64,000 bases of DNA, taken from contig JAJRTR010000011.1 of assembly GCA_024278215.1 (NCBI GenBank), positions 25,583 to 89,582 of the forward strand. The letters are read 5' to 3'. The notes beneath the pieces were generated by a model. That model made no database searches. It saw nothing but the letters and a program-made list of their open reading frames with translations, and was not told the DNA's origin. The DNA comes from a bacterium (GTDB lineage Bacteria; UBP15; UBA6099; JAJRTR01). This document shows, piece after piece, positions 428 through 38,751 of the stretch. Numbering within the stretch: the stretch's first letter is position 1; every line of letters begins with the position of its first letter. Made by a program: the position numbers and the translations under genes.

Positions 428-1564
428 TTAAGTTTTAGGCGACTCGAACATGTGGCGGTAAATCTCAGAAGCTATTCTTTTGAGCGGCACAACATGGTCG
501 ATAAGTTGCGCGTCCACAGCAGCGCGCGCCATGCCGTATATAGCGCTCGAGTGTTTGTCCTGCGCGATTGTTGTTCCCCCTGCTTCTTTTATGCGACGAA
601 GCCCCTTGAGACCGTCCTGTCCCATACCTGTCATCATTACGGCGAGGCTGCGGGATTTGCAGGTGGCCGAGATCGTTTCGAAGAGAATGTCGGCGCTCGG
701 GCGGTATAGAACATTATCAGGCTTGTCGTCGAGTTCCGCACACAGGCGACCGTTTATCCAAGCCGCTTTCAGGTGAAACTTATCGGGCGAGAAATATACA
801 GTGCCGCTTGCGAGGGGCTCCCCGTCTTCGGCTATTTTTACATTCACGGCACAAGTGCTGTCGAGTCGTTGCGCGATGCCGCTGATGAAACCGGGTATGA
901 TGTGCTGCACCACCAGCATCGGTGCGGGGAACTCCTCGGGCAACTGAGGTACGAATTGGCTCAGAGCGCTGGGACCGCCTGTCGATATGGCGACGCCCAC
1001 GATGTCGAAACTTCTGCCCAGCGTGTTTCTTACGTCGCTGTTGTTTTCCCCGGCTGATTGGATTATCTCTGTTTCAATCTGCTGATCCGGCGATCTTTCC
1101 CGCAGAACGGCGAGAATGTCTTTGAGGGAAACGGGAGCGGTCTTTTTAATGGAGCCTGCACTGACAAGTCTTTTCAGTCTTTGTTCCCTGATGCTGTTTG
1201 TGCCGTTCGATGTTTCGGGAATCTCGATAAGGTCGAGTGCGCCGAGTTTTATACCTTTTTCAATAATATCCTCACAACTTTCGGGCCTTGCGGAAACAAG
1301 GAGAACAGGGATTCTGTACCTGACAAGCAACCTGCAAAGTGTAACGAGCGGGGCGGTTTCCGTGGTGTCGACCGAGAGAAGAATGATATGCGGAGACAGC
1401 CGTGAAACCGTGTCCGCAGCTTTATCCGCCGACCTTTCGTGATGGAGGTCGAAATCAGGGTCGCTGAACAGCGCATCAAAGAACGAAATGATTTTTTCGC
1501 TCTTTGACACCAGTAAAATTATTATCTGTTCCCTGACGTTCAACTTTTCCTCACTGTATTTCAC
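428..1564 (-). CDS. cheB: Chemotaxis response regulator protein-glutamate methylesterase CheB (REC + methylesterase)
   Basis: N-terminal receiver domain; C-terminal methylesterase motifs (ISTGGPSAL, VVQHIIPGF, MTGMGQDG). 378 aa. Confidence 0.85.
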   Translation of the reverse strand: MKYSEEKLNVREQIIILLVSKSEKIISFFDALFSDPDFDLHHERSADKAADTVSRLSPHIILLSVDTTETAPLVTLCRLLVRYRIPVLLVSARPESCEDIIEKGIKLGALDLIEIPETSNGTNSIREQRLKRLVSAGSIKKTAPVSLKDILAVLRERSPDQQIETEIIQSAGENNSDVRNTLGRSFDIVGVAISTGGPSALSQFVPQLPEEFPAPMLVVQHIIPGFISGIAQRLDSTCAVNVKIAEDGEPLASGTVYFSPDKFHLKAAWINGRLCAELDDKPDNVLYRPSADILFETISATCKSRSLAVMMTGMGQDGLKGLRRIKEAGGTTIAQDKHSSAIYGMARAAVDAQLIDHVVPLKRIASEIYRHMFESPKT

Positions 1565-1764
1565 TCTATATATAACGAACTTTTCGCCCGGGTTGCTTCA
1601 CAAAGAAATCCGGGAAATCGTGATAACGTCCATTCTACTTCCGTTGCGGCGGTGGCTCGGGACCGGTCTCCTGAGAATTCAGCTCGACCTCGCCACGAAC
1701 ATAATTTGTAATTGGCTCAACTGAGAAAAGCGGGATTGGTGATTTCCCGCCAGCCACTATTTAG

Positions 1765-1787
1765 CCCGTATTTGTGAGATATGCGGG
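1765..1787. repeat. REP-like palindrome (copy 2)
   Basis: cccgtatttgtgagatatgcggg, between the MCP stop and the cheB start. Confidence 0.7.
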
Positions 1788-1878
1788 TCAGCGCTATATC
1801 CCGGAGCCCCCATGTGGCCGCACTGATGCGGCATACGAAATGCTGGATGCGGCATCGTTAAATAAACATGCGGTGTTA

Positions 1879-4428: not shown

Positions 4429-4526
4429 GTGTTGTCCTCCTCATTTTCTTTAACTGTTTTGTTTATATTCCCTTAAAATAAAAGGCGGAAACAACCTGTT
4501 GCGTAGCCAGGGGAGCTTAACGTCCC

Positions 4527-5045
4527 CTACGCATATTTTTGAACCATTTCCCTTGCGATCTGTATTACTCGTACCATGTCGACAACGATCAGTACGTTCG
4601 ATGCTGTTTTGTGCATACCGACGACATATTCAGCGCCCAGCCCCGACAGGGACGGGGGAGGGTCCTGAAGCGAGGAAAAATCTATGTCCAGAACTTCGTT
4701 GACTTTATCCACGATGATGCCCACGTCGATATTATCCAGTTCGGGAACATGCAGTACGACAATCATGTAGCTTTCGTCTTCATTGCGCGGCATCTGGAAC
4801 ATCTGCTTGAGATCGATAATAGGAATGATCGTGCCGCGCAGATTCAAAATACCATGTACGAAACGGGGAACATTCGGCATCGGCGTTATCGTGAATTCGT
4901 CGATTACGGTTTTGACTTCGTCGACTTTTATCGCGTACTGTTCCGACCCGAGCGTGAACCACAGGACACTCTGAAGATTGAAGTCGGTGTAAATCTGGTC
5001 GTCGCTGTCAGTGCTGAAACCTACATTGAAAAGGTTAACATTCAT
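4527..5045 (-). CDS. cheW: Chemotaxis coupling protein CheW
   Basis: 172 aa with a CheW-like domain (GILNLRGTIIPIIDL). Confidence 0.8.
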   Translation of the reverse strand: MNVNLFNVGFSTDSDDQIYTDFNLQSVLWFTLGSEQYAIKVDEVKTVIDEFTITPMPNVPRFVHGILNLRGTIIPIIDLKQMFQMPRNEDESYMIVVLHVPELDNIDVGIIVDKVNEVLDIDFSSLQDPPPSLSGLGAEYVVGMHKTASNVLIVVDMVRVIQIAREMVQKYA

Positions 5046-5064
5046 ATTGCCGGCGCCTCATTTC

Positions 5065-8000
5065 TTAAAATACCCTGAGGTGTTTATCAATAGCGGTTCT
5101 CAAGTCGTCTTCAGAAAACGGTTTTGCCAGGAATTCATTTATGCCGACCTCGAACGCTTTGTTCCTGTCGGCGCTTTTAACATCCGATGTCACCATGATT
5201 ATAGGTATCCTGCTGGTGTCGGGTTTTGATCTGACTTTCTGTGTAAACTCATAGCCGTCCATGCGCGGCATGTTTATGTCAGTGACGATTACGTCGAATT
5301 TTCTTTCGGTAAGTTTCGTCAGCGCCTGCATCCCCGAGGAGGCGACATCTACGAAGTATCCGATTCGCTCGAGCATCTCGCGCTGTGCGATACGGCCCGA
5401 AAGGGAGTCGTCGACAAGCAGCACCTGTTTTGCTTCGGACATGGCGTCGAAGGCACCCCTGTCTTCCACCTTTTTCGATATATATGGTATTGAAGATACG
5501 ATGCCGGCCACATCAAGTATGAGAGCGATCGAGCCGTCACCGAATATCGTGGCACCGGACATGTGCTTTACGTCCCCGAGAAACGAGCCAAGGTTCTTGA
5601 TTACCACCTGCTGTTTTTCCAATACTTCGTCTACAATCAGCCCGAACTTCTTCTCCGCCTGGCCGAGTATTACGACGGGGAACGACCCTGTGCGTTTTTC
5701 CAGTTCGGGAAGGTCGTAGACATCACGCAGGTGCACGAGAGGTATCACCATTTCCTGGTGACGGTAGACCTCCTTGCCCTCGACGAAGGAAAGCTCATAT
5801 CTCGATACCTGCGCGGTGGATTCGATCGGGTCCATGGGGATGACGAATTTCTGGTTGTTGCATTTAACAATCATGGCCTGGATAATGGCAAGAGTCAGCG
5901 GCAGTTTGAGTTTGAGAGTCGATCCCATGCCGACTTCGGATAGTATATCGACAGTGCCTTTTAGTTTCGTGATGCTGTTTTTGACAACGTCCATACCGAC
6001 CCCCCGGCCCGAGAGGTCGGAAACCTTGTCTGTGGTGCTGAAGCCGGGTATGAATATCAGGTTCATCTTGTCGCGCGGCCCCATCGCGTCTGCCTCTTCC
6101 TGCGAGATCAATCTTTTTTCTATACATTTGCGGGCTATCATTTCAGGGTCTATACCCTTGCCGTCGTCCTGCACTTCGATCACGACGGAGTTGCCTTCGT
6201 GGTAGGCGCGCGCCCATATCGTTCCGTTTTCCTTTTTGCCGGACTCGCGGCGCCGTTCGCGTGTCTCTATGCCGTGGTCCACCGCATTTCGTATTATGTG
6301 CAGAAGCGGCTCTTCGATCTCTTCGATAAGTGTTTTGTCCAGCTCGGTGTCTTCGCCCTCGATGATAAAGTCGATTCGTTTTCCGAGGCTTTTCGCGATG
6401 TCCCTGACCCTGCGTGGAAATTTACTGAAAACGCCTGAAATCGGGAGCATCCGCAGCCGCATCGTTTCTTCCTGCAACTCTTCTATCATTCTTCCGATAT
6501 TCAGGGCATCGTCCTGGAACTCCGTGCTGAGGTGTTCGAACTCGGCTTTGAGTAAACTTACTTTTGTGAGCATATCCTTCAGGAGCGATTCCTGCTCGAG
6601 TTCCATATCAAAAAGCTGCGTGGTATTCTCGCGGATGATGCGAAGTTCCTTCATGTTCTCGAGAGTGCTTCGCTCGATGGCGCCCGCGCCGAGGTCGATC
6701 ATTTCCGGTTGCAGCGTCTGGAACGGTTTCATAATATCTTCGCGCGTGAGATTCCTCTCCTCGAGACCGGTGGACTTACTGCTGAACTTGAGATTGTCGT
6801 ACATTTCTCCCACGAGATTGACACCCTGTTTGAGTCTTTTTGTTTCCTGTTCCAGCTTATTGTGGTTGATGACGAGTTCGGCGATAAGGTTTACCAGCAC
6901 ATCGAGTTTTTCGGTGTCGACCCTTACGGTGGAGCGGGGAGCGGCCTTATCGGCTTTTTTCCGGGGCCTGCGCCCAGGCTTTCCCTGCGTCTGCCCCTGC
7001 GAAACTGCCGGATGTTCTTCTTCCGGCGCTTCAGCTTCAAGCGCAAGTTCGATTTCTTCGAATTCGACATCGCCGATTTTGAAAAGGTAAGAATACTTTT
7101 TATGGAATTCGTCGAAAGAAAGTTCCGTGGCGAACAGCAGGAAAAAGTCGTAGGCTGTAGCTTTTTTGCCCTTCTCGCCGAGTGCGATGATAAGAGCGGA
7201 AAGGTATTCGCCTTCTTCGGTGAGCGGTTTGAAGAATTCCGACATACTGGCAATGTCGCTCAGCTCGTTGAGTTTGTAAGCCATCTTGATCTGGAACACA
7301 TTTTTCGAATCGATGAGTGATTTTGCCAGAGTGCGTTTTTCATAGGGGGTGAAGAATTCGCCGGCCTCGTGATCGACGCTGAGATGTTTGAATATCTCGA
7401 CGGCGGCCTCCGCCGAGACATAATCTTTTTGTTTTCTCAGCGGCGCCATTATCGTATGGATTTTTTTCAGCAGTGAGTTTATGTCGGGCGGAGGCCCCGA
7501 TTTTCCGCGTGTGAGCCTGTATTCTATCAGGATTCCGGCATGTGACACGCTTTTGAAAATGCAATCGAGTGTGTCCATGTTTTGTTGGATCAGGCCCTCG
7601 CGCATTGCGTCGCGCAGGACGAGTATCCGGGTGAGTATCTCATTTACCGCCGGTTCGCCGTAACAGGTCAGTGTCCGGTGCAGGTAGGTAATGGAATCGA
7701 AGAGTTTATTTATGAAATTTTCGTTGTCCACGTTTTCGTCGGCAAGAATATATTTGCCGTCGATATCGTTAAAAATCTTGTGGCAGCGTTCGAGAGCAGT
7801 GCGGAGTTCTTCGCCGACTATTTCAAACAGGTTTGCTCTTGTGCCGGCGTCTGGAACTGCGATATTGGGGCCAGTGGGTTTTTCTTTCTTTTTCTCATGT
7901 TTTTTCGCGAATTTTTTTTCGGGTTTTTTGACCGTTACGTTTTGAGTTTCCGCCGCAGTGTCGTCTGCCGCGTCTTTTGCCTCGACGGGTTCAGGGGCGG

Positions 8001-8493
8001 ATTCTTCGGAGGGCGGTGGTTCCTGCGCGGGAGTGGGAGTGGGAGTGGGAGGTTCCTGCGCGGAAGGCTCTACGACCGGCTCGGGTTTTTCCGCATTTGG
8101 GGCGGGTTTCTGTTTTTGCGCTGCCGATATTGCGCCGGGCACGTAGGAGTCGTTCTCGATGCTGTCGAGAATAGCCTTAATGACATCGGCAAGGTCGAAA
8201 AACTGGTCCAGCAGGTCGCTGTCGATCTCCGGGAGTTTGTTTTTGAATTCCTCGAATATATCTTCTATGTGGTGGGCTATTTCGCTGATGTCCATGAATT
8301 CGACCATAGCCGACGAGCCCTTGATAGTGTGTACGTTTCGGGATATCCGGTTGAGAATCTCCTCGTCTGCTTCTCCCTGTTCGAGTGAGACGAGGTCCTG
8401 GTCAAGACTATCCATATATTCCTTGCATTCATCAAGGAACAGTTTGACGATTTTCGCGGTTTTGAACGATTTAGCCATTGTTTTCGCTGTCAC
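5065..8493 (-). CDS. cheA: Hybrid chemotaxis histidine kinase CheA with C-terminal receiver domain (WspE-like)
   Basis: HPt motif HTIKGSSAM; dimerisation domain; HATPase (IIRNAVDHGIE, DDGKGID); CheW-like P5; C-terminal REC (LLVDDSL...DINMPRMDGYEF). 1142 aa with a low-complexity P/T/K-rich linker. Confidence 0.85.
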   Translation of the reverse strand: MTAKTMAKSFKTAKIVKLFLDECKEYMDSLDQDLVSLEQGEADEEILNRISRNVHTIKGSSAMVEFMDISEIAHHIEDIFEEFKNKLPEIDSDLLDQFFDLADVIKAILDSIENDSYVPGAISAAQKQKPAPNAEKPEPVVEPSAQEPPTPTPTPAQEPPPSEESAPEPVEAKDAADDTAAETQNVTVKKPEKKFAKKHEKKKEKPTGPNIAVPDAGTRANLFEIVGEELRTALERCHKIFNDIDGKYILADENVDNENFINKLFDSITYLHRTLTCYGEPAVNEILTRILVLRDAMREGLIQQNMDTLDCIFKSVSHAGILIEYRLTRGKSGPPPDINSLLKKIHTIMAPLRKQKDYVSAEAAVEIFKHLSVDHEAGEFFTPYEKRTLAKSLIDSKNVFQIKMAYKLNELSDIASMSEFFKPLTEEGEYLSALIIALGEKGKKATAYDFFLLFATELSFDEFHKKYSYLFKIGDVEFEEIELALEAEAPEEEHPAVSQGQTQGKPGRRPRKKADKAAPRSTVRVDTEKLDVLVNLIAELVINHNKLEQETKRLKQGVNLVGEMYDNLKFSSKSTGLEERNLTREDIMKPFQTLQPEMIDLGAGAIERSTLENMKELRIIRENTTQLFDMELEQESLLKDMLTKVSLLKAEFEHLSTEFQDDALNIGRMIEELQEETMRLRMLPISGVFSKFPRRVRDIAKSLGKRIDFIIEGEDTELDKTLIEEIEEPLLHIIRNAVDHGIETRERRRESGKKENGTIWARAYHEGNSVVIEVQDDGKGIDPEMIARKCIEKRLISQEEADAMGPRDKMNLIFIPGFSTTDKVSDLSGRGVGMDVVKNSITKLKGTVDILSEVGMGSTLKLKLPLTLAIIQAMIVKCNNQKFVIPMDPIESTAQVSRYELSFVEGKEVYRHQEMVIPLVHLRDVYDLPELEKRTGSFPVVILGQAEKKFGLIVDEVLEKQQVVIKNLGSFLGDVKHMSGATIFGDGSIALILDVAGIVSSIPYISKKVEDRGAFDAMSEAKQVLLVDDSLSGRIAQREMLERIGYFVDVASSGMQALTKLTERKFDVIVTDINMPRMDGYEFTQKVRSKPDTSRIPIIMVTSDVKSADRNKAFEVGINEFLAKPFSEDDLRTAIDKHLRVF

Positions 8494-9320
8494 CTCGGCA
8501 CTTTTTGAAATGCCACAGAATCCTTGAGTGTAATCATTTTGAAACCGTCGGTGAGTCCCCTGATCATCTCGGTGGGGCCGAGAAAGAGATAGCCGCCGTC
8601 TTTCAAAGAGTCGTAAAACCTGTTCAGGATATCCGCTTTGGTTTCATCCCTGAAATATATCATCACATTTCTGCAGAAAATAATGTCGAAGTCTTTCTGA
8701 AAATAAGAGTCGGTAAGATTCGAATACTCGAACTCGACATATTTTTTTATTGATTCCCTGATAGCATAGTTGCCGTCACTGGGGGTAAAGTATTTTTGCA
8801 GGTATTCTTCGGGCAGGTTTTCGACGGAGCGTTTGGAATAGATACCCTGGAAGGCTCGCGCGAGCACCTCCGTCGATATGTCGGTCGCAAGGATTTCGAT
8901 GTCCCATATCGAGTGAAACTTCAGTGTTTCGAGGACACATATTGCGAGTGTGTAAGGTTCTTCGCCGGTCGAGCAGCCCGCGCTCCATATATTGAGGTTC
9001 CGGTTGTTCTGCGCGACTTTTTTATCTGTTATCTCAGGGAGGATGATTTTTCTGAAGCTGTCCATTTGAGAGTTGCTTCGATAGAAATATGTTTCATTTG
9101 TGGTAACGAGATTTATGAGTGTCGACAGTTCCGACCTGTCGTCTTCCGAGGCGATAACCAGCAGGTATTTGCCCAGGTCCGATATCCCCGACTCTTTGAG
9201 GCGTGTGTTGATCCTGTTGGAGAGAATGGGCAGCTTCGATTCGTTGAACCACAATCCGCAGGCGCGGAAAATAACGTCTCTGACCTTCAATATCTGGGAT
9301 TGTTCGAGTTGCTGCATCAT
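8490..9320 (-). CDS. cheR: Chemotaxis protein methyltransferase CheR
   Basis: CheR N-terminal domain plus SAM-dependent methyltransferase domain. 4-nt overlap with cheA. Confidence 0.8.
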   Translation of the reverse strand: MMQQLEQSQILKVRDVIFRACGLWFNESKLPILSNRINTRLKESGISDLGKYLLVIASEDDRSELSTLINLVTTNETYFYRSNSQMDSFRKIILPEITDKKVAQNNRNLNIWSAGCSTGEEPYTLAICVLETLKFHSIWDIEILATDISTEVLARAFQGIYSKRSVENLPEEYLQKYFTPSDGNYAIRESIKKYVEFEYSNLTDSYFQKDFDIIFCRNVMIYFRDETKADILNRFYDSLKDGGYLFLGPTEMIRGLTDGFKMITLKDSVAFQKVPR

Positions 9321-9329
9321 TGTTTTGGT

Positions 9330-9698
9330 TTACAGGAACCTTTTTATGACTTCTTTGACTTTCTGGTAGTTGAAAGGCTTTGTCAGGTATTCGTTGGAGC
9401 CCGCCTTGAGTCCCCATATACGGTCGGTCTCCGCGCTTTTTGCCGTAAGCATGATAATCGGAATATGTTTATAATTGCTGTCTTTTTTAAGCAGTTTGCA
9501 GAGCTGATAGCCGTTCATCCTGGGCATATCGATGTCAAGAAGTATCAGGTCGACATGATGCCTTTTGATAACTTCCAGCGCCTCGATTCCGTCCGTGCCC
9601 ACCAGCACGGAGTAGCCGTCTCCGGTCAATGCTTCGCGGACGGCTTCGACTACAACCGGGCTGTCATCAACAACGAGAATAGTAGTGCCGCTCGCCAT
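9330..9698 (-). CDS. cheY: Single-domain response regulator CheY
   Basis: 122 aa REC domain (ILVVDDSPVV...DIDMPRMNGY...TKPF). Confidence 0.8.
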   Translation of the reverse strand: MASGTTILVVDDSPVVVEAVREALTGDGYSVLVGTDGIEALEVIKRHHVDLILLDIDMPRMNGYQLCKLLKKDSNYKHIPIIMLTAKSAETDRIWGLKAGSNEYLTKPFNYQKVKEVIKRFL

Positions 9699-11188
9699 CA
9701 GTACTCACTCCCTTCGGTCGAATAGAGGCAGACCTTATTGCGACCCTCGGCTTTTGCTTTGTACAGCGCCTCGTCGGCCTTTGCTATCAGGTCAAGTCTA
9801 TTTGCGATGTCGTCGTCAGGGTGCCCGGCGACTCCCAGGCTTGCCTTTACGTGCAGTATTTCGTCTTTGTGTTTAAACTCGAAGCTCTCCAGAGAACTCC
9901 TTATTCTTTCCGCGACAACAGTTGCGTTTTTCTTGGGTGTTTCAGGCAGGATCACGGCAAATTCCTCGCCGCCGTACCTTGCCGCCAGGTCGATGTCCCT
10001 TACACATCTTTTCAGTATAAGAGCGATACCTTTCAAAATCATGTCTCCCTGCTGGTGTCCATAAGTATCGTTGAAATTTTTAAAATGATCTATATCGAGC
10101 AGGATCAGCGAAAGCGAGAGGTTGAATCGCCTTGCGCGGCTGTACTCTTTTTCGAGTTGTTCCTGGAAATACCGGTGGTTATGCAGTCCGGTCAGGCCGT
10201 CGGCTATTGCGTATCTTTTTATTCTTTCATACATTCTCAAATTGTCGAGGACAATCTGCGACTGGCCTGTGATGATATTGCACATTTCGATTTCGTCGTC
10301 CGAGAAAGGCCCCTGTTTGCCGCGGGCCATGGTATACATGCCGTACTTCTCTCCCTGCGATTCCAGCATAGCCATCTTGAGTCCGCGTATGGTGGTGCTG
10401 CCGTCGTCTTTGAGCATGTTGTGGTCCGGGTCATTCACCTCCACCTCGACATTGTCCCATTGTATATTGGTGATGCCGGAATTCTTTTTGTATTCGTTGA
10501 TCATGCTTTTTCTTGCTTCTTTGAAAAACTCTCTTGCCAGGGGGTTCTTGATGAAAACGAAAAGTTTGATCCTGTCCTCGTCGGTGATCAGGAAAATAGC
10601 GAGGTCGAAGTCGATGACGGAGGCGTAGAGGTCCGCGAGATAGCCACAGGTCGTGGGCAGGTCGTCGCGTCCTATTGCTATCTGATGAATCCTGTTTATC
10701 AGAGACATTTTGAAGAGTTGCGTTTCCTGAAGTTCACCCGCTTTGAAAATGACATCTTTTTCCTCGTCCAGTTCGATTTCAGGTAACGGTTTCGCGGGTT
10801 TCGGCTTTATTACCGCCACTTTTTTCACGCTTTCGAGAAGTTCTTCAACTTTATCCAGCAGGTCGTCGGGGTCGAACGGTTTGGTGAGATACTCGGTGGC
10901 GCCTGTTTCCATGCCCCAGTACTGGTCTTTCTTCTGGTCCCTTGCCGTGAGCATGACAATAGGCAACTCGGCGAAGTTCGGATCATTGCGCAGCATGCGG
11001 CAGACCTGCAAACCGCTGAGGTTCGGCATGTCGATGTCGAGAAAAAGGAGATCAAAATCCTTTTCCCGTATGACCTCCAGCCCCTGCACTCCGTCCGGAG
11101 CCGTCGTCACGCTGTAGCCGGCGCTCACAAGCACTTCCTCGAGCGATTTTCTTATTACCGGACTGTCGTCAACTACCAGTATATTCAT
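9698..11188 (-). CDS. Response-regulator diguanylate cyclase (REC + GAF-like + GGDEF), WspR-like
   Basis: N-terminal REC (ILVVDDSPVIRK...DIDMPNLSG). C-terminal GGDEF domain with an intact active site (RYGGEEFAV). Central GAF-like region. Confidence 0.8.
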   Translation of the reverse strand: MNILVVDDSPVIRKSLEEVLVSAGYSVTTAPDGVQGLEVIREKDFDLLFLDIDMPNLSGLQVCRMLRNDPNFAELPIVMLTARDQKKDQYWGMETGATEYLTKPFDPDDLLDKVEELLESVKKVAVIKPKPAKPLPEIELDEEKDVIFKAGELQETQLFKMSLINRIHQIAIGRDDLPTTCGYLADLYASVIDFDLAIFLITDEDRIKLFVFIKNPLAREFFKEARKSMINEYKKNSGITNIQWDNVEVEVNDPDHNMLKDDGSTTIRGLKMAMLESQGEKYGMYTMARGKQGPFSDDEIEMCNIITGQSQIVLDNLRMYERIKRYAIADGLTGLHNHRYFQEQLEKEYSRARRFNLSLSLILLDIDHFKNFNDTYGHQQGDMILKGIALILKRCVRDIDLAARYGGEEFAVILPETPKKNATVVAERIRSSLESFEFKHKDEILHVKASLGVAGHPDDDIANRLDLIAKADEALYKAKAEGRNKVCLYSTEGSEY

Positions 11189-11294
11189 TTGTCCCCAATA
11201 TAATATCCAGTGATATTACAACCCCTGCGATGTATGCACGAAGAAAAATCATTTCTTCCTTCGCCCACATGCAGTTATTCCTGCTTGTGCGTAT

Positions 11295-11474
11295 GAGCCA
11301 ATTGCAAAATTCTGATTCGGCTGCGGTCGGCTGCAATTGTCCATAGCTGCGTTGTCGGCGCAAAATCATCCTCAACGTACTCCACGAGTACGCCTGCGGG
11401 GATTTTGCACTTCCGCCTTGCTTCTGAATAATTTCGTTCGACCTCGCTTCGAACATAATTTTGCAATTGGCTCG
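11295..11474 (-). mobile_element. MITE-like repeat, full copy A (~180 bp) with terminal inverted repeats GAGCCAATTGCAAAATT
   Basis: Near-identical to copies at 18101-18278 and 32940-33118, in opposite orientation. Flanked by a GTAT/GTAT direct repeat. Nested internal palindromes. Confidence 0.8.
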
Positions 11475-11507
11475 TATAAGTTCGCTTTTCGTTTGCTGTT
11501 TCCCCCA

Positions 11508-11780
11508 TCAATCCGCAGTTGCAGTCGCCTCTTCAGGTTCGATCGTATAGCCGCAATAGGGGCAGAACGGTTCATACTCACTGACGGGCTTTCCACATTT
11601 CACGCAGTCGAACTTTGCGATTTTTGTGGACTCGTGTTTCCCCTTTGCGTCGTCCACGCAGGTTCCGGATTCGTCTGCCGTATTCTCTCTCTTCGCTTTC
11701 AGATACCTGTTTGCCCCATAACCGATACCAAGAGCGGCGGCTGTTCCTGCGATGACAGCGAGCCAGGTGCGGTTCATCAT
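11508..11780 (-). CDS. Small membrane-anchored zinc-ribbon protein
   Basis: N-terminal hydrophobic segment; C4 ribbon CVKCGKPV...CPYCGY. ATGA overlap with the upstream TPR protein gene. Confidence 0.55.
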   Translation of the reverse strand: MMNRTWLAVIAGTAAALGIGYGANRYLKAKRENTADESGTCVDDAKGKHESTKIAKFDCVKCGKPVSEYEPFCPYCGYTIEPEEATATAD

Positions 11781-14700
11781 TCTCTCCTTCCCCTGCCCCG
11801 TTTGTTTTTAGCGCCCTGCATCAGCCTGCATTTTTCCCGGAGCACATTCCTTTTCGCCGCCGCCGCCTGGTAACTCGGGTCATGTTCAAGAATCCGCTCG
11901 AACTGCTTCATCGCCGAGCAATAGTCCTGCTTCTGTTCGAACGCCTGCCCGTATGAGAACAGGGCGTCCGTGTCGCTTGGTTTAATCACAAGCAGTTTCT
12001 CGAGATCACTTATCGCCTGGTTTATTTCCGATTCCGCTGTCTGCAGATCGTTCCTTTTCTCGGCGCGTTCCGAGTTCTGGATGTGTATGTTCGCCATCTT
12101 ATTGAGAATTCCAGGCCTTTCCGGGTCGACAGCGTGTGCTTTCATGCCGGCTTCGATAGCTTTTGCGTAATTGTTGTTGTTCTCATATTGTAATGCCTGC
12201 CGGTAGTACCACTGGTATATAACGATCTTATGTGTGAATATGTATAATATTCCCATGCCCATCAGAAATACTACGAGCAACCCGATTTTAATTATCTTGG
12301 GCATGAGTTGCTCCATTTCGACCATGGCCTTCTTTCCGACCTCTATCTCGAATGTTGGGATTGCATAAGGATTATCTTCTCCGTCATCAATATATGTCTC
12401 AATGTCTTCTTCATAAGTATCTTCAGCAGTGGTATTTTCAACAGCGTATTGATCGTCCGTCATGGTCTGATCGTCCATAGCTGCTCCTTCCTGTGAGTAG
12501 TCCGGCAGCGCTGCTTCAGGCTGGTAATCAGGCTGTTCCCCGGGCATAGGCGGCGGACCGTCCGGCTGCGTAGAATCCGGTTCCTCGAAAGCGGGAGCAG
12601 GCGCGACCGGCATTTGCGGCGCGAAGTCCTCGCCTGCCGTTGTATAGTCCGGCCCGGCGGCGGGAGGCGGCGCGAAATCGTCAGCAGGCATAGCAGGCGC
12701 TTCCGGATAATCCGCCGGTTCGGTATAGTCTCCCGCGGGCACCGGGGGCGGCGGTTCGTCGGGGCCGCCGCCTGTTTGACTCGCGAGAAACGCCTGCGGG
12801 TCCTCTATGCCGCCGGGCGCGGAGACATAGTCGTTGTCAACCGCCGGTGCGACAGGTTCCGTGTAGCTCTCTTCGCTGTATTCTTCCTGGTATTCCGGTG
12901 CCGGCTCTTCATATATTTCCGCCGGCTGATCGCCATACACCGCAGGGTCGGTATATTCAGGCTCGTAGTCCGCACCGGCATCCTGCGCATGCTGCGCCGC
13001 ATATCCGGCGGATGAATCTATTGTTGTCAGTATTGCTTTTCTGATAGAGAAATCTCCGACGTTTGGATTCGACGCCGTAATCGTTATCGAGTCGCCGATC
13101 GATGACGGCGCTGTATATGATGTCGTAACTTCTCCGTTATCGTCGCTAAGGGTCTGCGCCTGCTCGCCGAGTGCGCCGGGAGCGCCTGTGTATCCATCCA
13201 TCGAGATCGCAACGAATTCGCCGGGTACGGGATTATCGAATGTATCGGTTATTCTTGCAGCAATATCTATTGTTTCGCCGGGTTCGAGTTCGAGTTTCGG
13301 CGCGATTATTTCTATCATTTCGGGTGCGCCGGGCGCGACATTTATTGTTATACTGTCAGCGGTCGCGCCCGATGAAATATTTACCGTAAAGCTGCCGCAT
13401 GTGCCGGAGGTTTTTACATGTGCCACGGCTTCTCCCGAAAGATCGGGCTCGACATCCACGAAGCGTCCGCTTTCCACGCCGCCCGGCGCGAGCATGACTG
13501 CCGCCGCACCCGGGCCTATATCTTCGATCAGTTCAAACCTTACTATGTCCGACGACGGCGCTCCGTCACTGTGCTTCGCGGTTATTTTGATCGGTACTAC
13601 CTCTCCCGCACAGCAGGCAAGAGATTCATCGGGTTTTATGAAATATATATCGCCGCCCGTAGCCTGTACCTGCTCCTGCGGCGGAGAAAACATATCCGGT
13701 TCAGAATAGTCTTTTGTCGGCTCGAACGCCGGTTCCGAATCATCGGGCAGCGGGAATGAATTGTCGAATTGCGCGGTCGGCTGCGGTTCGTCGAATGAAG
13801 GTTCTTCAACTGCGGTTGAATATTGGTCTTCGCCGGGCTGTGTGTCGTCAGGGAGTACGAACAAGTCATCAGGCGCAGCATCGGCAACCGGTTCCGTATA
13901 GGTATTTGACGGGGCGGTCAGCTCATCCGCACCGGCATCAACAACGTCGAATTGATCCTGTGGCGGCGCAGCTTCCTCGTCGAGCATCGAGCCGAGCACA
14001 TCGAGAGTGCTGCCGCCGGGCACCGGTTCAGCATGTGCGGGAGGGGCGACAGGTGGAGACTCCGGAACGTCCGTATCGTCCGTATATGAGGACGCAGCGC
14101 CGGCGGCATCGTAGTCGAGGCTGTCGAACCCGCCTGCTTCTTCGTTTTCAGGCGCGAATTCATCGACAGTGGCGGGTTGGTCCGCGGGTGCGTAATCCTG
14201 CGAGGCGGTTTCTCCCGCCATATCCGGCAGTCCTGCGAGGCTGTCACCGCTCAGTTCCACATCGAGAAGATGTGGGTCGTGCGATGCGGGTGGCTCGTCG
14301 TCGAACTCACCGCCGAACTCGTCATATACGACTTCATCGGCTGTTTGCGAACTCTCTGCCCCGACTGTTTCCACACGGGACCGCGCTGTAATCGTTGCAG
14401 GCAGGTATTCGGACCGGGGCGCGAACACGGCGGTCGCCCCGGCAGTGCCGGGCGCTGTCACATTTACCGTAATTCCGCCGTCCATTCCCGTAGTTGCCGA
14501 AGATGCTTCTGAAAGCAGCCATTCGCCGCCACTGGATTCTTCTATTATGATCGTTGCCGGGACGCCGTCTATCGGGTTGTCGTACTCGTCTAGCAGTCTC
14601 ATCTTTATCGCGAATTGTTGTCCGGGCACAACCGTTGTTTCGGCAGGGATGAACATCGCAAAGTTCGCTTGTCCGGGTACAACATTGAATTCGACATTGT

Positions 14701-15781
14701 CTTCAAAACCGGTTGTTTTGCACGCTACTTCGAATCTGCACCTGGTGTGTCCGCGTGTCGGCATGCGGAATACGCGCGTGAGCCGGCCGGTACCGTCGGT
14801 TTTTATATTATCATTATCTACGACTTCCCACTCGGTCTTTGTCTGCATCTGCAACGACAACGCCAGTTCGGTATCCGCAACCGGATTATCGAATTCATCG
14901 TAAGCCTCGATGCGGAATTCGACTTCCTGCGCTGTCCGGTACTGGTTGCCGCGCGGTGAAATCTCCACCCTTGCAATATCCGCCGCGTGTGTATTGTCTT
15001 CGAAAAACTGAGGCGGAAGTTCATCGGTTTTTATTTCTATTTTGTTCGAGCCTGCAATCTTTGATCTTCTGAAGAATATCTTTGCTTTTCCGTCGTTGTC
15101 GGTTTTCAGGTGGAGTTCGTCGGGGCCCTGTTCGGCGTTCGCGCGCTCGGGAGTCAGGGCGATGAAGGCATCCTGAAGTCCCTGGTCGCAAACCAGTTTG
15201 AAGCATACAGTTGCCTGGGCGACGGGGATGTCCCTGTCGCCCAGAACAGTTGCGGACACGGAGTCATAGGACCATACACGTGAGGAAATGTTTTCCAGGG
15301 CAGGTTCGATGATAAGTTTTACAGGCTTAAGGCCGACCTGGCCGCGCGGCCTGTCGATGGCGGGCCTTGTGGCAAGGTCCACCGGGGAACCTTCCGCCGG
15401 TGCGGCTATTCCTGATGCGGCGGTGATTCCCGGGTCGAGATTCTGATCGTTGCCGGTGGCGCCGTCTTTGTCTGAAGCGGATTTCTTGTATTCCGCTACT
15501 GCCTTGCCCAGCGGTCCCGAAAGGAGCGAATCGAGTCCGGCATCAATATGTTGTGTCGCATAAGATGTGTTCAGTTCGATCGCTTTCTTGTACATCTGAT
15601 AAGCTTCGTCTTCGAGTTTTTTTTCTTCGAGGGTTTCAGCAAGATGATAATAGGCAGCCGAATACTCCGGCTCGAGGTTGATCGCCTTCCGGAAATTGGC
15701 TATAGCCTCGTTGTATTTCTGATCCTTGGTCAATGTGTTGCCAAGTGTGTGAAATTTTACTGCCCGTGGGTCAAGAGACAT
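11777..15781 (-). CDS. Giant TPR-repeat membrane protein with Ig-like (Big) domains and a ~400-aa acidic Pro/Tyr-rich disordered region
   Basis: 1334 aa. N- and C-terminal TPR motifs, several Big-like beta domains, a single TM near the C-terminal TPR block, and an extreme D/E/P/Y-rich low-complexity core. Confidence 0.7.
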   Translation of the reverse strand: MSLDPRAVKFHTLGNTLTKDQKYNEAIANFRKAINLEPEYSAAYYHLAETLEEKKLEDEAYQMYKKAIELNTSYATQHIDAGLDSLLSGPLGKAVAEYKKSASDKDGATGNDQNLDPGITAASGIAAPAEGSPVDLATRPAIDRPRGQVGLKPVKLIIEPALENISSRVWSYDSVSATVLGDRDIPVAQATVCFKLVCDQGLQDAFIALTPERANAEQGPDELHLKTDNDGKAKIFFRRSKIAGSNKIEIKTDELPPQFFEDNTHAADIARVEISPRGNQYRTAQEVEFRIEAYDEFDNPVADTELALSLQMQTKTEWEVVDNDNIKTDGTGRLTRVFRMPTRGHTRCRFEVACKTTGFEDNVEFNVVPGQANFAMFIPAETTVVPGQQFAIKMRLLDEYDNPIDGVPATIIIEESSGGEWLLSEASSATTGMDGGITVNVTAPGTAGATAVFAPRSEYLPATITARSRVETVGAESSQTADEVVYDEFGGEFDDEPPASHDPHLLDVELSGDSLAGLPDMAGETASQDYAPADQPATVDEFAPENEEAGGFDSLDYDAAGAASSYTDDTDVPESPPVAPPAHAEPVPGGSTLDVLGSMLDEEAAPPQDQFDVVDAGADELTAPSNTYTEPVADAAPDDLFVLPDDTQPGEDQYSTAVEEPSFDEPQPTAQFDNSFPLPDDSEPAFEPTKDYSEPDMFSPPQEQVQATGGDIYFIKPDESLACCAGEVVPIKITAKHSDGAPSSDIVRFELIEDIGPGAAAVMLAPGGVESGRFVDVEPDLSGEAVAHVKTSGTCGSFTVNISSGATADSITINVAPGAPEMIEIIAPKLELEPGETIDIAARITDTFDNPVPGEFVAISMDGYTGAPGALGEQAQTLSDDNGEVTTSYTAPSSIGDSITITASNPNVGDFSIRKAILTTIDSSAGYAAQHAQDAGADYEPEYTDPAVYGDQPAEIYEEPAPEYQEEYSEESYTEPVAPAVDNDYVSAPGGIEDPQAFLASQTGGGPDEPPPPVPAGDYTEPADYPEAPAMPADDFAPPPAAGPDYTTAGEDFAPQMPVAPAPAFEEPDSTQPDGPPPMPGEQPDYQPEAALPDYSQEGAAMDDQTMTDDQYAVENTTAEDTYEEDIETYIDDGEDNPYAIPTFEIEVGKKAMVEMEQLMPKIIKIGLLVVFLMGMGILYIFTHKIVIYQWYYRQALQYENNNNYAKAIEAGMKAHAVDPERPGILNKMANIHIQNSERAEKRNDLQTAESEINQAISDLEKLLVIKPSDTDALFSYGQAFEQKQDYCSAMKQFERILEHDPSYQAAAAKRNVLREKCRLMQGAKNKRGRGRRE

Positions 15782-15789
15782 GTTCTGTT

Positions 15790-17220
15790 TTACGCCCTCC
15801 TGCGTTCATACGATGATGGAATTCTCAGTTCTTCTCTGTACTTTGCGACAGTTCTTCGGGCAAGTTTGATGCCTTTCTCAAGCAAAATATCGCGTATGCG
15901 ATTATCTGAAATAGGCTTCTTCGCATCCTCGTTGAAGATGAGGTTTTTTATATATTCCTTAGGCCGGATGGAAGAGTCGAAAAAGAAATCGAAACTGAAT
16001 ATTTCGCCCGATGGAACCCGGATGAATTTTCCCGACATTGCCCTTGAAACCGTCGATTCGTGCAGTTCGATTTTTTCCGCGAGCCGTCCTTGCGTCAGTT
16101 CAGTATTGAAATTGGGTAATCCCTTAATGAGGAATTCCGCCTGCTCCTCACATATCGCTTTTGCTATTTTGTCGAGTGTCTGCTTCCTCTGCTCGATGCT
16201 GTCCTGGTAGAACTTTGCGCGCCTGAAATATTCTCGGACATGGCTCATGTCTTTTCGAGTTATCTCTGTATTGCCCTGCTTGTATGACCTGTACATGTCG
16301 AGATATGTGCTGTTTATCCTGAGCCTGAAATCCGCAAGTTCGAGAACTTCATAGCTGAGCGCCTTTCCGTCATACCGTATCTCTATCGCCGGTTTTGCCA
16401 GTTGCACAGCATCGGTGCTGCGGCCCATATAAGCACGGCCCGGATAAGGGTTCAGGTTTCTGCGTATGAAATCAAGTGTTTCCCTGACACGGCTGACGGG
16501 CACTTCAAGTTCCGTGGCGATTCTCTCATATCTATTTTTTCCGAGGTTTTCGAAGTGCTGATCGATTATCCTTTCCGCGAGTTCGCAGCCTTTTCCTTCC
16601 TCGGCCAGTACGTTCAACTGTATCAGAAGCGCTTCGCGTGCGTCGCGCGCCCCGACACCCGCAGGCTCCAGCGTCTGGATCACTTTCACCACTTCATCAA
16701 TCACCTCGGGCGTGGTCTCAAACATATCGGCAATTGCTGTTTCATCATACGTGAGGAACCCGTCTTCGCTGATCGAGTGCACCAGGAATTCGCCTAGTTC
16801 TTTTGTGCCTTCAGGATATTCGGACGCAAGGAAATTGAGTGTGAGATAATCTCTGAATGAAGTCTCGCGCGATGTGAAACTGGTAAAAGATGTCGCGTCT
16901 TCTCTCTCGCCGATCGGCCCCTCGTAGGGTGCGCTGTCGCCGTCATATTCCATAATTCTCTGCTGGATGAATTGCTCTGTCTGTTCCTCCTCCAGATTGT
17001 CTTTCCTTCCGCAATGTTCGCATCGTGTGCCGTTCATGGGTCTTCCGCAGTGAGGGCATGTAACGATATTTTCGATCTCGAGGGCCGGGTTCTCGCTCAG
17101 TTCCTTCTGTATCTCCTGCACAAGCTCGATTACCGGCATCTGCAAAAGCTGCTGCGATTGGATAAACTGCGGACTAAGGGTTTGTATCTGCTTAAGCGAT
17201 GTGACCAGCTTGATTTCCAA
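15790..17220 (-). CDS. rpoN: RNA polymerase sigma-54 factor RpoN
   Basis: Gln-rich region I; region III; C-terminal RpoN box ARRTVAKYRE. Contains an unusual C4 zinc-ribbon (CPHC...CEHC) in region II. Confidence 0.85.
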   Translation of the reverse strand: MEIKLVTSLKQIQTLSPQFIQSQQLLQMPVIELVQEIQKELSENPALEIENIVTCPHCGRPMNGTRCEHCGRKDNLEEEQTEQFIQQRIMEYDGDSAPYEGPIGEREDATSFTSFTSRETSFRDYLTLNFLASEYPEGTKELGEFLVHSISEDGFLTYDETAIADMFETTPEVIDEVVKVIQTLEPAGVGARDAREALLIQLNVLAEEGKGCELAERIIDQHFENLGKNRYERIATELEVPVSRVRETLDFIRRNLNPYPGRAYMGRSTDAVQLAKPAIEIRYDGKALSYEVLELADFRLRINSTYLDMYRSYKQGNTEITRKDMSHVREYFRRAKFYQDSIEQRKQTLDKIAKAICEEQAEFLIKGLPNFNTELTQGRLAEKIELHESTVSRAMSGKFIRVPSGEIFSFDFFFDSSIRPKEYIKNLIFNEDAKKPISDNRIRDILLEKGIKLARRTVAKYREELRIPSSYERRRA

Positions 17221-17512
17221 GACGCCTGCTCCGGTTCCCTTACATGCAAAACTAATTAAGTTTTATGAACTTAATCATTAGATATATATACACACATCAT
17301 GCTGTCGGCTAAACATAATTCTACAAAACACATGCCATCCGATCAAGCTTTATTATGATTTATACATACGGAATTACTGTATTTTCCCTGCATTCAGGAT
17401 GATCTTTCGTTATGTTACGTCGCCTCCGCGCTGTAATCCGGGAAATCATTTATACGAATCGGATTGCCCCGGTATCGGGAAAAAGATAAAATATATGTGA
17501 CACAATTGTCGA

Positions 17513-17995: not shown

Positions 17996-18100
17996 AGAGA
18001 AAAAATCTTCAAACACGTTAAAATAGCATACTTTAGCGCACAATAGGATATTTATTTTACTCGACTATTTCGAACTTTCATAGTATTATATAGTCTAATA

Positions 18101-18278
18101 GAGCCAGTTGCAAAATTATGTTCGTAGCGAGGTCGAGCGAAATTGTTCAGAGCAAGGCGGAGGTGCAAAATCCTCGCAGGCGTACTTGTAAAGTACGTCG
18201 AGGACGATTTTATGCCGACAACGCAGCTATGGACAATAGCAGCCGACCGCAGCAGAACCAGAATTTTGCAATTGGCTC
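18101..18278 (+). mobile_element. MITE-like repeat, full copy B
   Basis: Terminal inverted repeats GAGCCAGTTGCAAAATT ... AATTTTGCAATTGGCTC. Flanked by a TAATA/TAATA direct repeat. Confidence 0.8.
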
Positions 18279-18352
18279 TAATAATATGTAAGATTTGCAA
18301 TGTGCTCGAAAGTGTGATGTTTGAATTATACGTTTTTCCGGGAGGATTCGGC

Positions 18353-19300
18353 ATGAAGAGAAACATCTGTATATCAATATTGATTATTTCATTATTGCTG
18401 GTTTTCGGGGCAAAATCGGCCAGGGTGTGTGCGACGGAATTCGAGGTGGCCACGGCCCCGGTTTCCGTAGCGGTGATCGACACCCGGACAGCAGTCGAAG
18501 ATATCACAAGAGCAAAAACAATGATCGAGTCGGAAAACGCGGGAGCAGATGAATTGAAAATGCTCATCGGACATGCAATGCACGTCCTGAGAGGTCCGTT
18601 GCCCAATGGAAAGGGCTATCATCTCGCTACGGTCGATATGGGCGACGATGTCGAGAACACGAACCTTATGAGCGTAAAGATCGACGCAATATGGGAACTC
18701 GGACAGAAGAAAACCATAACTGCCGAGTTGTCTTCGGTATATAAATTTATTATTTATTCACCGCTTCACAGGGGATTCTTCAAGAATAACGGTAACTTCT
18801 ACCTGGACTCCTACACTGTGGAATATACGATAAATGGAATCACCGAATCGAAGACTGTCGAGTACAAGGACTGGATTACAAGAGACAGCACACTTGAGGT
18901 TCCGCTTCCGGGAATAGCGGAATGGGCGAAGCTCGAACTGGTAGTCGGTGTCGAACCGGCGGACGTAAACAACGCGATTTTACAGATTTATGCCAGACAG
19001 CCTGTCGTGGACGATGACCCCAAGAATCCATTTTCGTATTCCATTTCGATGCTTGCCGAAGCGAAAGATAGAATCGAGATCGGCAGACGCCTCAAAGAAA
19101 TCGAGAAATTTCTCGACGAAGCCCTGCTCGGCATAAAAGTCGCAAAGACTTATGCCGCAGATGCGTCTGTTGTCGCCGGGGGACGTGGAATCTCCGTGCA
19201 GGAACTCGAACGTATCCTCTACTTGCTTGAAGGCAACGCGCTCGAAAACGATGAAGGTGTAGAGGAATTAAAAACACTGCTTGAGAAACAAAAGAAGTAA
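18353..19300 (+). CDS. Secreted hypothetical protein (signal peptide)
   Basis: Met at 18353 preceded by a GGAGGA RBS; N-terminal MKRNICISILIISLLLVFGA signal sequence. No recognisable domain. The upstream ORF-track extension runs through the MITE. Confidence 0.55.
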   Translation: MKRNICISILIISLLLVFGAKSARVCATEFEVATAPVSVAVIDTRTAVEDITRAKTMIESENAGADELKMLIGHAMHVLRGPLPNGKGYHLATVDMGDDVENTNLMSVKIDAIWELGQKKTITAELSSVYKFIIYSPLHRGFFKNNGNFYLDSYTVEYTINGITESKTVEYKDWITRDSTLEVPLPGIAEWAKLELVVGVEPADVNNAILQIYARQPVVDDDPKNPFSYSISMLAEAKDRIEIGRRLKEIEKFLDEALLGIKVAKTYAADASVVAGGRGISVQELERILYLLEGNALENDEGVEELKTLLEKQKK

Positions 19301-19609
19301 GAGCGGATTGAAAAAAAATGGTTTCCGGAGCCGATCGCGGCGAAAACAGGATATTGCAGCCGGCTCACCGGTAATCTTTTTTCAGACAAAAAAAATCCTG
19401 CCTTGCTTTTACCCGGATAAGGCAGGAGGAAACCGCGCTCAAAATTGACGAACGCGACATATTTGACGGTTCTCCGGACAACATGCCCGGAGTCCCGGTC
19501 GACTCTATAAATTTCAGGTTTTAAAGTGTTTTTTTGTAGGCCGTACATTTATACTATCCACGCGTTCCGCAATTTTTTCACTTGTTTTAAAAAATCTTTT
19601 CACGCATAA

Positions 19610-19632
19610 CCCGCATATTTCACTAATGCGGG
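19610..19632. repeat. REP-like palindrome (copy 3, inverted orientation)
   Basis: cccgcatatttcactaatgcggg, just 3' of the enoyl-CoA hydratase stop. Confidence 0.7.
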
Positions 19633-19656
19633 CCAAAAAACCATTCGTTCAGCAAT

Positions 19657-38746: not shown

Positions 38747-38751
38747 CATCA

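Follow-up and report, generated by a model that had tools for sequence, protein, structure and literature searches.

A sigma-54 gene linked to a giant predicted TPR-Ig membrane protein and a chemosensory c-di-GMP cluster in candidate phylum UBP15

The rpoN locus and the layout of the giant protein

The stretch examined here is a 64-kb window of contig JAJRTR010000011.1, from a bacterium of the candidate phylum UBP15, in which the sigma-54 gene rpoN is followed directly by a gene for a 1,334-residue protein, hereafter the giant, and then by genes for a small zinc-ribbon protein and for the proteins of a chemosensory cluster. All coordinates are positions in this window, and rpoN, the giant, the zinc-ribbon gene, and the chemosensory genes all lie on its minus strand (Table 1). 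A preliminary description had recognized the first three genes, and their open reading frames (ORFs), their strand, and the sigma-54 identity of rpoN were all confirmed. The RpoN translation matched the Pfam domains AID (PF00309), CBD (PF04963), and DBD (PF04552) above their cut-offs, scored 305.2 bits against the NCBIfam equivalog TIGR02395 (cut-off, 277.35), and contained the RpoN box ARRTVAKYR. The TAA stop codon of rpoN is separated from the ATG of the giant by 8 nt (AACAGAAC), rather than by the 9 bp first reported, and the TGA of the giant overlaps the ATG of the zinc-ribbon gene as ATGA, as had been described.

The layout of the giant was derived from Pfam matches, from composition, and from two AlphaFold (AF2) models built on the family alignment, m25ef53212edd (residues 1–480; predicted local distance difference test [pLDDT] score, 84.9) and md5489bff72ca (residues 691–1334; pLDDT, 72.8). 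The protein opens with a tetratricopeptide repeat (TPR) head, its best-conserved part, which carries the invariant motif HI-x2-GL-x2-L-x2-GPLG-x-AV in the family alignment. A disordered linker leads to three tandem immunoglobulin (Ig)-like β-sandwiches, for which Foldseek returned invasin (1cwv), FdeC (4e9l), and complement/A2M MG domains, and Pfam returned Invasin_D3 at sub-threshold scores only. The first acidic intrinsically disordered region (IDR1) comes next and contains the short motifs LAGLPD, FDSLD, LDVLGSMLD, and LPDD; the acidic-hydrophobic motifs kept across the family are L[SA]GLPD, LEGLD, LDxLxSMLD, and LPDD. Beyond it lie a second Ig module, with one domain assigned to Big_1 (44.3 bits; Pfam cut-off, 34.9) and Foldseek matches to InvE, FdeC, and SbsC, a second acidic region (IDR2), and a predicted transmembrane (TM) helix. 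The C-terminal TPR domain was matched by TPR_14, TPR_9, and TPR_CcmH_CycH, all below the Pfam threshold, and by the idealized TPR 1na0 in Foldseek; this end of the protein also has the cysteine pair C1288/C1318 and a basic RGRGRRE tail. The TPR, Ig-like, TM, and C-terminal TPR elements named in the preliminary description therefore stand, but its single disordered segment of ~400 residues proved to be two acidic blocks, of ~230 and ~205 residues, with two Ig-like domains between them. Foldseek confirms the modeled folds (tandem Ig and TPR), and its matches are generic, with no specific function indicated.

The product of the third gene, described earlier as a membrane-anchored C4 zinc ribbon, does carry a hydrophobic anchor, and its ribbon (CxxC-x13-CxxC) scored 29.7 bits against Pfam Zn_Ribbon_1 (cut-off, 25); the families matched include PF13240 and PF13248. 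It gave no match to PF02591 (DUF164) in Pfam and has a TM segment in place of a coiled coil. Orthologues sharing the motif C-x2-CG-x2-V-x-EYEFFCP-x-CG occupy the same position in L001, L003, L004, L005, L007, L009/L010, and L017, where L numbers denote related loci or lineages and, below, P numbers denote homologous proteins. As a strongly basic stretch follows the anchor in every orthologue, the ribbon is predicted to be cytoplasmic. The spacer between this gene and the cyclase gene is specific to the window genome and carries its repeated motif in direct and inverted orientation; L001 has ~7 bp in the equivalent gap, and L017, the closest relative, has 105 bp. Either a regulatory region that was inserted or what is left of a small element could account for the spacer, and a repeat search made with a miniature inverted-repeat transposable element in mind turned up short repeats only.

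The preliminary description treated these three genes as a unit, and this view was too narrow at one end and too strict at the other: seven further co-oriented chemosensory genes belong with them, and the zinc-ribbon gene is dispensed with in some relatives (see below). Positions 428–11188 hold the complete gene content of a Wsp-type system, namely a methyl-accepting chemotaxis protein (MCP), CheW, CheR, a hybrid CheA-REC, CheB, and a REC-GGDEF protein, in one orientation. A complete Wsp/PleD-type chemosensory pathway with cyclic di-GMP (c-di-GMP) as its predicted output is thus encoded after the trio. The diguanylate cyclase has both its GGEEF active site and its RxxD I-site intact and looks catalytically competent; its best NCBIfam match was the PleD family, below the cut-off (276 versus 474). 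Between its REC and GGDEF domains lies a domain of ~200 residues (residues 130–325) to which Pfam made no assignment, and which resembles neither a recognizable second REC, as in PleD, nor a short coiled coil, as in WspR.

Table 1. Features of the rpoN locus, in coordinates of the 64-kb window
Feature	Position	Strand	Basis and remarks
Promoter island	17318–17346	minus	Sigma-70-like TTGATC-17nt-TAGAAT, with a sigma-54-like −24/−12 motif, TGGCATGTGTTTTGT, in the spacer
rpoN (sigma-54)	15790–17220	minus	476 aa, TTG start; Pfam and TIGR02395
C4 zinc ribbon in RpoN, CPHCGRPMNGTRCEHC	17011–17058	minus	aa 55–70; directly C-terminal to Region I
Giant gene	11777–15781	minus	1,334 aa, ATG start
Giant, TPR head	15464–15781	minus	aa 1–106; Pfam TPR_11, TPR_2, others; AF2 helices 5–106, pLDDT >90
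Giant, disordered linker and three tandem Ig-like β-sandwiches	14357–15463	minus	Linker aa 107–145, sandwiches aa ~150–472; AF2, Foldseek
Giant, acidic IDR1	13667–14356	minus	aa 476–705 (~230 aa); net charge −59, 0.4% K+R
Giant, second Ig module	12977–13666	minus	Two Ig-like domains, aa ~712–920; one is Pfam Big_1; AF2
Giant, acidic Pro/Tyr-rich IDR2	12362–12976	minus	aa 936–1140 (~205 aa); net charge −53, no K/R, 18% P, 8% Y
Giant, pre-TM motif DNPYAIPTFEIEVGKK (conserved) and predicted single TM helix	12227–12361	minus	TM aa ~1160–1185; hydropathy; AF2 helix 1154–1201
Giant, predicted C-terminal TPR domain	11777–12226	minus	aa ~1186–1327; Pfam sub-threshold; AF2 helices 1205–1327; Foldseek
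Bitopic zinc-ribbon protein	11508–11780	minus	90 aa; N-terminal hydrophobic anchor, basic stretch, C4 ribbon
Spacer, zinc-ribbon gene to cyclase gene	11189–11507	minus	319 bp; three TTGCAAAAT-like motif copies
Response-regulator diguanylate cyclase	9698–11188	minus	REC, middle domain, GGDEF (Pfam)
CheY-like REC	9330–9698	minus	Pfam
CheR	8490–9320	minus	Pfam
Hybrid CheA-CheW-REC	5065–8493	minus	Pfam
CheW	4527–5045	minus	Pfam
MCP	1879–4428	minus	Pfam
CheB	428–1564	minus	Pfam

A small protein family in a conserved gene order

The giant belongs to a small, uncharacterized protein family. Only 16 of 5.8 billion clustered proteins matched the giant beyond its TPRs. When a profile of the non-TPR part (residues 72–478) was searched exhaustively with HMMER against 1.84 billion representatives, full-length matches were found within the family only, together with a few fragments and P0157, a compact distant member of 742 residues. 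The remaining profile matches, considered as possible remote homologues, were multi-Big adhesins aligned through a single Ig domain and were set aside. The family's sources were all metagenome-assembled genomes (MAGs) of unclassified “bacterium” from digesters, wastewater, and groundwater, one of which is titled UBP15_UBA6099. UBP15 is a candidate phylum with few genomes, of 2.6–4.6 Mb and 51–60% GC (PMC11382960), and the GC content of the window (~51%) fits that range.

Full-length orthologues with the same domain order occurred in at least 12 independent assemblies, including one of 1,357 residues that is 61% identical to the giant and has both long IDRs. The preliminary description had raised the possibility that so long an ORF is a fusion artefact; because independent assemblies share its domain order, it is not an assembly chimera. 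In L003 alone, a long-read contig of 3.17 Mb, the gene (positions 10001–13679 of L003) is split inside IDR2 into ORFs of 835 and 359 residues, through a frameshift introduced by long-read assembly or as a true split.

The two disordered regions vary in length across the family, IDR1 from 144 to 247 residues and IDR2 from 50 to 236 residues. Tyrosine enrichment, which the preliminary description had singled out, is present in the window protein, but in IDR2 a content of ≥7% is confined to P0001–P0004, and so we dropped the Tyr-rich IDR as a family-defining feature. In P0157, from lineage L015, the linker is Lys-rich instead of acidic, and the second Ig module and acidic IDRs have been lost. The conserved linker property is an acidic, Pro-rich flexible chain, with Tyr-richness as a trait of a subclade. 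A conserved TPR head and conserved IDR1 motifs, combined with drifting linker length and composition, would fit a head on a tether.

Orthologues of the window genes in related loci were placed by tblastn and called genes. In all 13 lineages recovered, rpoN stands directly before the giant, with an 8-nt gap or an overlap, so the rpoN-giant synteny, named beforehand as the test that could overturn the preliminary description, was kept throughout. Downstream DNA was visible in 10 of the 13. The zinc-ribbon gene follows the giant in eight of these and is absent from L015 and L016, and in nine the same seven genes follow in the same order: cyclase, CheY-like REC, CheR, CheA-CheW-REC, CheW, MCP, and CheB. 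The chemosensory order after the REC-GGDEF gene was seen in L001, L003, L004, L005, L007, L009/L010, and L015. The last of these, the most distant lineage (that of P0157), has acquired a glutamyl-tRNA synthetase gene, gltX (L015 positions 5501–6952), which separates the giant-like gene from that of the cyclase, with the cluster order kept. Gene order is maintained even though the relatives' giants can be only 33–40% identical, and no giant-like gene was found at the three nearest outgroup rpoN loci, one of them from Ktedonobacterales.

The pairing of rpoN with the giant is therefore the invariant core of what is usually a co-oriented cluster of ~10 genes. The canonical rpoN operon (lptB-rpoN-hpf-ptsN-rapZ) differs in that the window has the giant, zinc-ribbon, and che genes downstream; there is no lptB upstream and no hpf, ptsN, or rapZ downstream in the window, and the relatives give the same picture, which agrees with the non-canonical neighborhood noted earlier. 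By its sequence distribution, the cluster is best described as a lineage-specific operon of an uncultured UBP15 clade. We found no description of the cluster in the literature; its components are familiar ones, namely sigma-54, a Wsp/PleD-like pathway, and modules of the TPR, Ig, and zinc-ribbon types.

Such linkage could reflect conserved neighbors without a common mechanism, with the giant and the zinc-ribbon protein doing an independent membrane or envelope task. The giant might, for example, be a TM-anchored periplasmic TPR chaperone or anchor with a cytoplasmic spacer, riding with rpoN as hpf and ptsN do in Proteobacteria. All of its domains, like those of the zinc-ribbon protein, are generic (TPR, Ig, zinc ribbon), and fold searches gave no specific functional match. 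The cluster has also accepted insertions and losses (gltX in L015, an ApbA gene in L016, the 319-bp spacer in the window), and across relatives the giant (33–61% identity) and the zinc-ribbon protein (~35%) evolve much faster than the signaling proteins (55–79%). We nevertheless consider this explanation somewhat unlikely, given that the order persists across giants of 33–40% identity and extends even to the remote lineage of P0157, that the genes overlap at their stop and start codons or lie 8 nt apart, and that outgroups lack the linkage.

Predicted topology of the giant, the rpoN promoter, and sigma-54

The ORF of the giant has no possible upstream extension, and its N-terminus is conserved from residue 1. 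No hydrophobic segment is present there (maximum Kyte-Doolittle value in the first 60 residues, ≤0.66), and by the hydropathy of this N-terminus no signal peptide was seen. In 15 family members, lysine and arginine residues flanking the TM helix number 3–5 on the N-terminal side and 0–3 on the C-terminal side. Cysteines C1288 and C1318 are both present in 12 members and both absent in the other members examined, a pattern expected of a disulfide in an oxidizing compartment, which would place the C-terminal TPR domain outside. On the strength of the missing signal peptide, the positive-inside rule, and the co-varying cysteine pair, we orient the N-terminus inward: the acidic TPR-Ig-IDR arm of 1,150 residues is likely to be cytoplasmic, with only the last ~150 residues outside, where the C-terminal TPR domain probably holds a disulfide. 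The envelope association proposed in the preliminary description is accordingly narrowed to a cytoplasmic arm tethered by a single TM helix, rather than an envelope-spanning protein, since the N-terminal 1,150 residues are predicted to be cytoplasmic.

The opposite arrangement, an exported adhesin-like arm at the surface or spanning the envelope with the TM helix and C-terminal TPR on the cytoplasmic side, seems to us very unlikely. An Ig array of the Big_1/invasin type and acidic linkers rich in Pro are what one expects of a surface protein, and a basic tail at the C-terminus would suit a cytoplasmic location. The best structural matches of the giant are in fact tandem Ig-like domains (Big_1, Invasin_D3) as in invasin, intimin, and FdeC; those proteins, however, have a signal peptide, an outer-membrane β-barrel, and surface display, whereas the giant has neither signal peptide nor barrel and its array is predicted to be cytoplasmic. 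The N-terminus is conserved, and with the rpoN stop codon just 8 nt ahead of the ORF there is no room for an upstream start. Moreover, export of an N-terminal tail of 1,150 residues with a net charge near −160 and no signal would be mechanistically implausible. The K/R bias also favors an inward N-terminus, and the co-varying cysteines favor an oxidizing site for the C-terminal TPR. Were the arm exported, the TM-TPR end of the giant and the small TM-zinc ribbon would resemble a split LapB-like TPR-plus-rubredoxin unit, in keeping with weak LapB-like TPR matches, but the giant scored only 22.5 bits against NCBIfam LapB (cut-off, 363). Its order and organization also differ from those of LapB/YciM, in which an N-terminal TM, cytoplasmic TPRs, and a C-terminal rubredoxin are combined in one protein.

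We then considered the region upstream of rpoN. In the window, TGGCATGTGTTTTGT lies at 17323–17337 on the minus strand, 117 nt upstream of rpoN, and the pattern TGGCAY-N5-TTGW that it represents occurs once in the 64 kb (chance expectation, 0.42). It also occurs once each in L003 (7957–7971), L007–L010 (L007, 7604–7618), L011 (2299–2313), and L012 (562–576), always 33–161 nt upstream of rpoN and on the coding strand, and was not found away from rpoN upstream regions in ~140 kb of non-redundant loci. A full TGGCATTCCGATTGC occurs in L005, at about −243 from rpoN. In the closest relative, L017, the island is conserved: TTGAT(C/A)-17-TAGAAT is shared with the window, and the sigma-54-like motif in its spacer reads TGGTAC. 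Good sigma-70-like promoters, many of them with an extended −10, were present upstream of rpoN in every lineage. A purely sigma-54 reading of the upstream motif was judged insufficient, as the sigma-70-like promoter is found in every lineage and overlaps the motif in the window. Transcription seems to be initiated at a sigma-70-like promoter carrying a sigma-54-type site, and this pairing of a putative housekeeping promoter with a putative sigma-54 binding site suggests rpoN autoregulation, of either sign. Other taxa offer predicted or documented cases of rpoN autoregulation (PMC12316311). None of the genes in the 64-kb window codes for an enhancer-binding protein. A search for the canonical TGGCAC-N5-TTGCW with two mismatches gave 14 matches against 27.6 expected, and as this is below chance, no genome-wide sigma-54 promoter signal is claimed; just the relaxed pattern ahead of rpoN stands out.

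These observations bear on whether the giant acts on sigma-54 itself, as a tether, chaperone, or anti-sigma-like module whose TPR head would hold sigma-54 at the membrane, perhaps with the zinc-ribbon protein, until a signal through the periplasmic TPR or c-di-GMP releases it. We regard such a role, including the release step, as improbable. The rpoN-giant pair is the sole invariant adjacency (13/13, the genes overlapping or lying 8 nt apart), six to seven lineages have a sigma-54-type motif ahead of rpoN, and the predicted topology (N-terminus in, TM, C-terminus out) is that of membrane anti-sigma factors. The gene logic is likewise that of pairs of extracytoplasmic function (ECF) sigma and membrane anti-sigma factors: the gene for the sigma factor leads, the one after it begins within 8 nt or overlaps it and encodes a single-pass protein with an apparently cytoplasmic N-terminus and an extracytoplasmic C-terminal domain, and a promoter-like site of the sigma factor's own type lies upstream. 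Sigma-54, however, is of another family and depends on activators that bind enhancers. Neither Pfam nor NCBIfam gave a match to an anti-sigma domain (zf-HC2, RskA, or similar) in the giant or the small protein, and the arm of 1,150 residues is far bigger than any known anti-sigma domain, making the cytoplasmic part >10 times larger than in ECF pairs.

The zinc-ribbon protein offers a second comparison, with FlgZ/HP0958 (DUF164), a C4 zinc-ribbon protein tied to RpoN stability that protects RpoN from turnover in Helicobacter (PMC3372290). Both are small C4 zinc ribbons, but FlgZ is soluble and combines a coiled coil with a DUF164 ribbon, whereas the window protein has a membrane anchor, lacks a coiled coil, and falls outside DUF164/PF02591; its gene is also absent in two lineages. 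Sigma-54 is normally controlled through AAA+ activators rather than by sequestration, and hpf and ptsN, the conserved rpoN neighbors of the canonical operon, need not bind sigma-54. That the giant, with or without the zinc-ribbon protein, sequesters or stabilizes sigma-54, and in doing so links an envelope or chemosensory c-di-GMP signal to sigma-54 availability, strikes us as distinctly improbable. To our knowledge, a membrane partner that sequesters sigma-54 would be the first anti-sigma-like partner of this enhancer-dependent sigma factor.

RpoN carries a C4 zinc ribbon of its own, with the pattern C-x2-C-x8-10-C-x2-C kept in all orthologues. In a search with full-length RpoN, the ribbon was present in 117 of the best 120 hits (P0057–P0146 among these), including hits from Ktedonobacterales, Anaerolineae, other Chloroflexota, and Armatimonadota. 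That breadth, together with the lack of a giant at the outgroup loci, ruled out the ribbon as an operon-specific trait. Its match to the FlgZ-type ribbon PF02591 is weak and sub-threshold (E = 0.0013), and we found no description of a ribbon after Region I in the literature searched. In one subclade (L003, 8118–10013; L011, 2456–4381; P0049, P0052, and P0053), RpoN is 631–646 residues long, owing to an insertion of ~150 residues between the acidic Region II and the core-binding domain.

Elsewhere in the window, the genes 5′ of rpoN are a divergent NikR gene and unknown ORFs. A stretch of lower GC content (0.46) at 17996–19656, between nikR and an enoyl-CoA hydratase gene, contains ORFs of 385, 184, and 109 residues with no Pfam match. 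A standard c-di-AMP synthase operon, cdaA (DisA_N/DAC)-ybbR-glmM, is located at 36726–40113 on the plus strand, so the organism has c-di-AMP as well as c-di-GMP signaling. Finally, an 864-residue protein (61399–63993, minus strand) combines a metallo-β-lactamase fold, cyclic-nucleotide-binding domains, and a C-terminal hemerythrin domain, an unusual, sensor-like arrangement.

A possible scaffold for the chemosensory module

Since the neighborhood is near-constant and the layout of the giant is hub-like (head, acidic arm, TM helix, outer TPR), the explanation that we favor is a scaffold for the adjacent c-di-GMP chemosensory module. We tentatively propose that the giant is a PodJ/HubP-like, membrane-tethered scaffold co-expressed with sigma-54. 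As a multivalent tether in the manner of PodJ, HubP, or FimV, it would fix or sense its position in the envelope through the outer TPR domain, and its flexible acidic arm and TPR head would recruit cytoplasmic partners, of which the very conserved CheY-like REC, the cyclase, or CheA would be the likeliest. The conserved acidic-hydrophobic motifs of IDR1 could serve as docking sites, and co-transcription with rpoN would tie the amount of the apparatus to the level of sigma-54.

A parallel in layout is PodJ, a polar scaffold of Caulobacter, which has a cytoplasmic oligomerizing region, a charged IDR that binds and regulates a client kinase, a TM helix, and a periplasmic TPR (PMC8980812). Both proteins would be bitopic, with a big cytoplasmic N-terminal region containing a charged IDR, a single TM helix, and an outer TPR; PodJ uses its IDR to recruit and regulate signaling proteins (PMC8980812). 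They differ in that PodJ has coiled coils where the giant has its TPR head and five Ig-like domains, in that the peptidoglycan-binding domain of PodJ is absent from the giant, and in that PodJ has no known rpoN link and no sequence homology to the giant. HubP and FimV are large, acidic, repeat-rich single-pass polar hubs with TPR-like modules that organize chemotaxis arrays, pili or flagella, and cyclic-nucleotide signaling. They resemble the giant as large single-pass membrane proteins with an extremely acidic cytoplasmic region and TPR-like modules, but their order is the opposite (N-terminal periplasmic LysM, TM, acidic cytoplasmic region) and they have no Ig domains. Searches of Pfam and NCBIfam found in the giant neither the coiled coils or peptidoglycan-binding domain of PodJ nor the LysM or C-terminal motif of FimV/HubP.

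The presumed client module is, by gene content, akin to Wsp of Pseudomonas and to PleD-type systems, with MCP, CheW, CheR, hybrid CheA-REC, CheB, and REC-GGDEF in one co-oriented cluster. It differs from Wsp in having an extra stand-alone CheY-like REC and a single stand-alone CheW (Wsp has WspB and WspD), and in its cyclase, with a 200-residue middle domain where WspR consists of REC, coiled coil, and GGDEF. We know of no described Wsp locus preceded by rpoN, a giant, and a zinc-ribbon gene.

Several points weigh against a scaffold. The role is argued from architecture and neighborhood, and the tightest linkage of the giant is to rpoN, not to the chemosensory genes; MAG263 (L014/L016) has an ApbA gene after the giant and no chemosensory cluster. 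Pfam and NCBIfam gave no sequence homology to PodJ, HubP, or FimV, and the likeness of the IDR1 motifs to CheY-binding peptides is a presumed one. Big_1/invasin-type Ig domains are, moreover, normally extracytoplasmic, so that their placement in the cytoplasm, to which sequence rules point, would be unusual.

Practical value is limited, as the organisms are uncultured, genomes are few, and functional statements are inferred. If the topology is right, the giant would offer a rare example of an Ig array of the invasin type at work in the cytoplasm. Control of sigma-54 is generally ascribed almost wholly to its AAA+ activators, and no need for a dedicated scaffold is known for Wsp-type pathways. 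The clade-wide linkage of rpoN, a membrane protein, and c-di-GMP genes points to a new coupling between sigma-54 and c-di-GMP, in space or in amount, or to a new type of hub protein.

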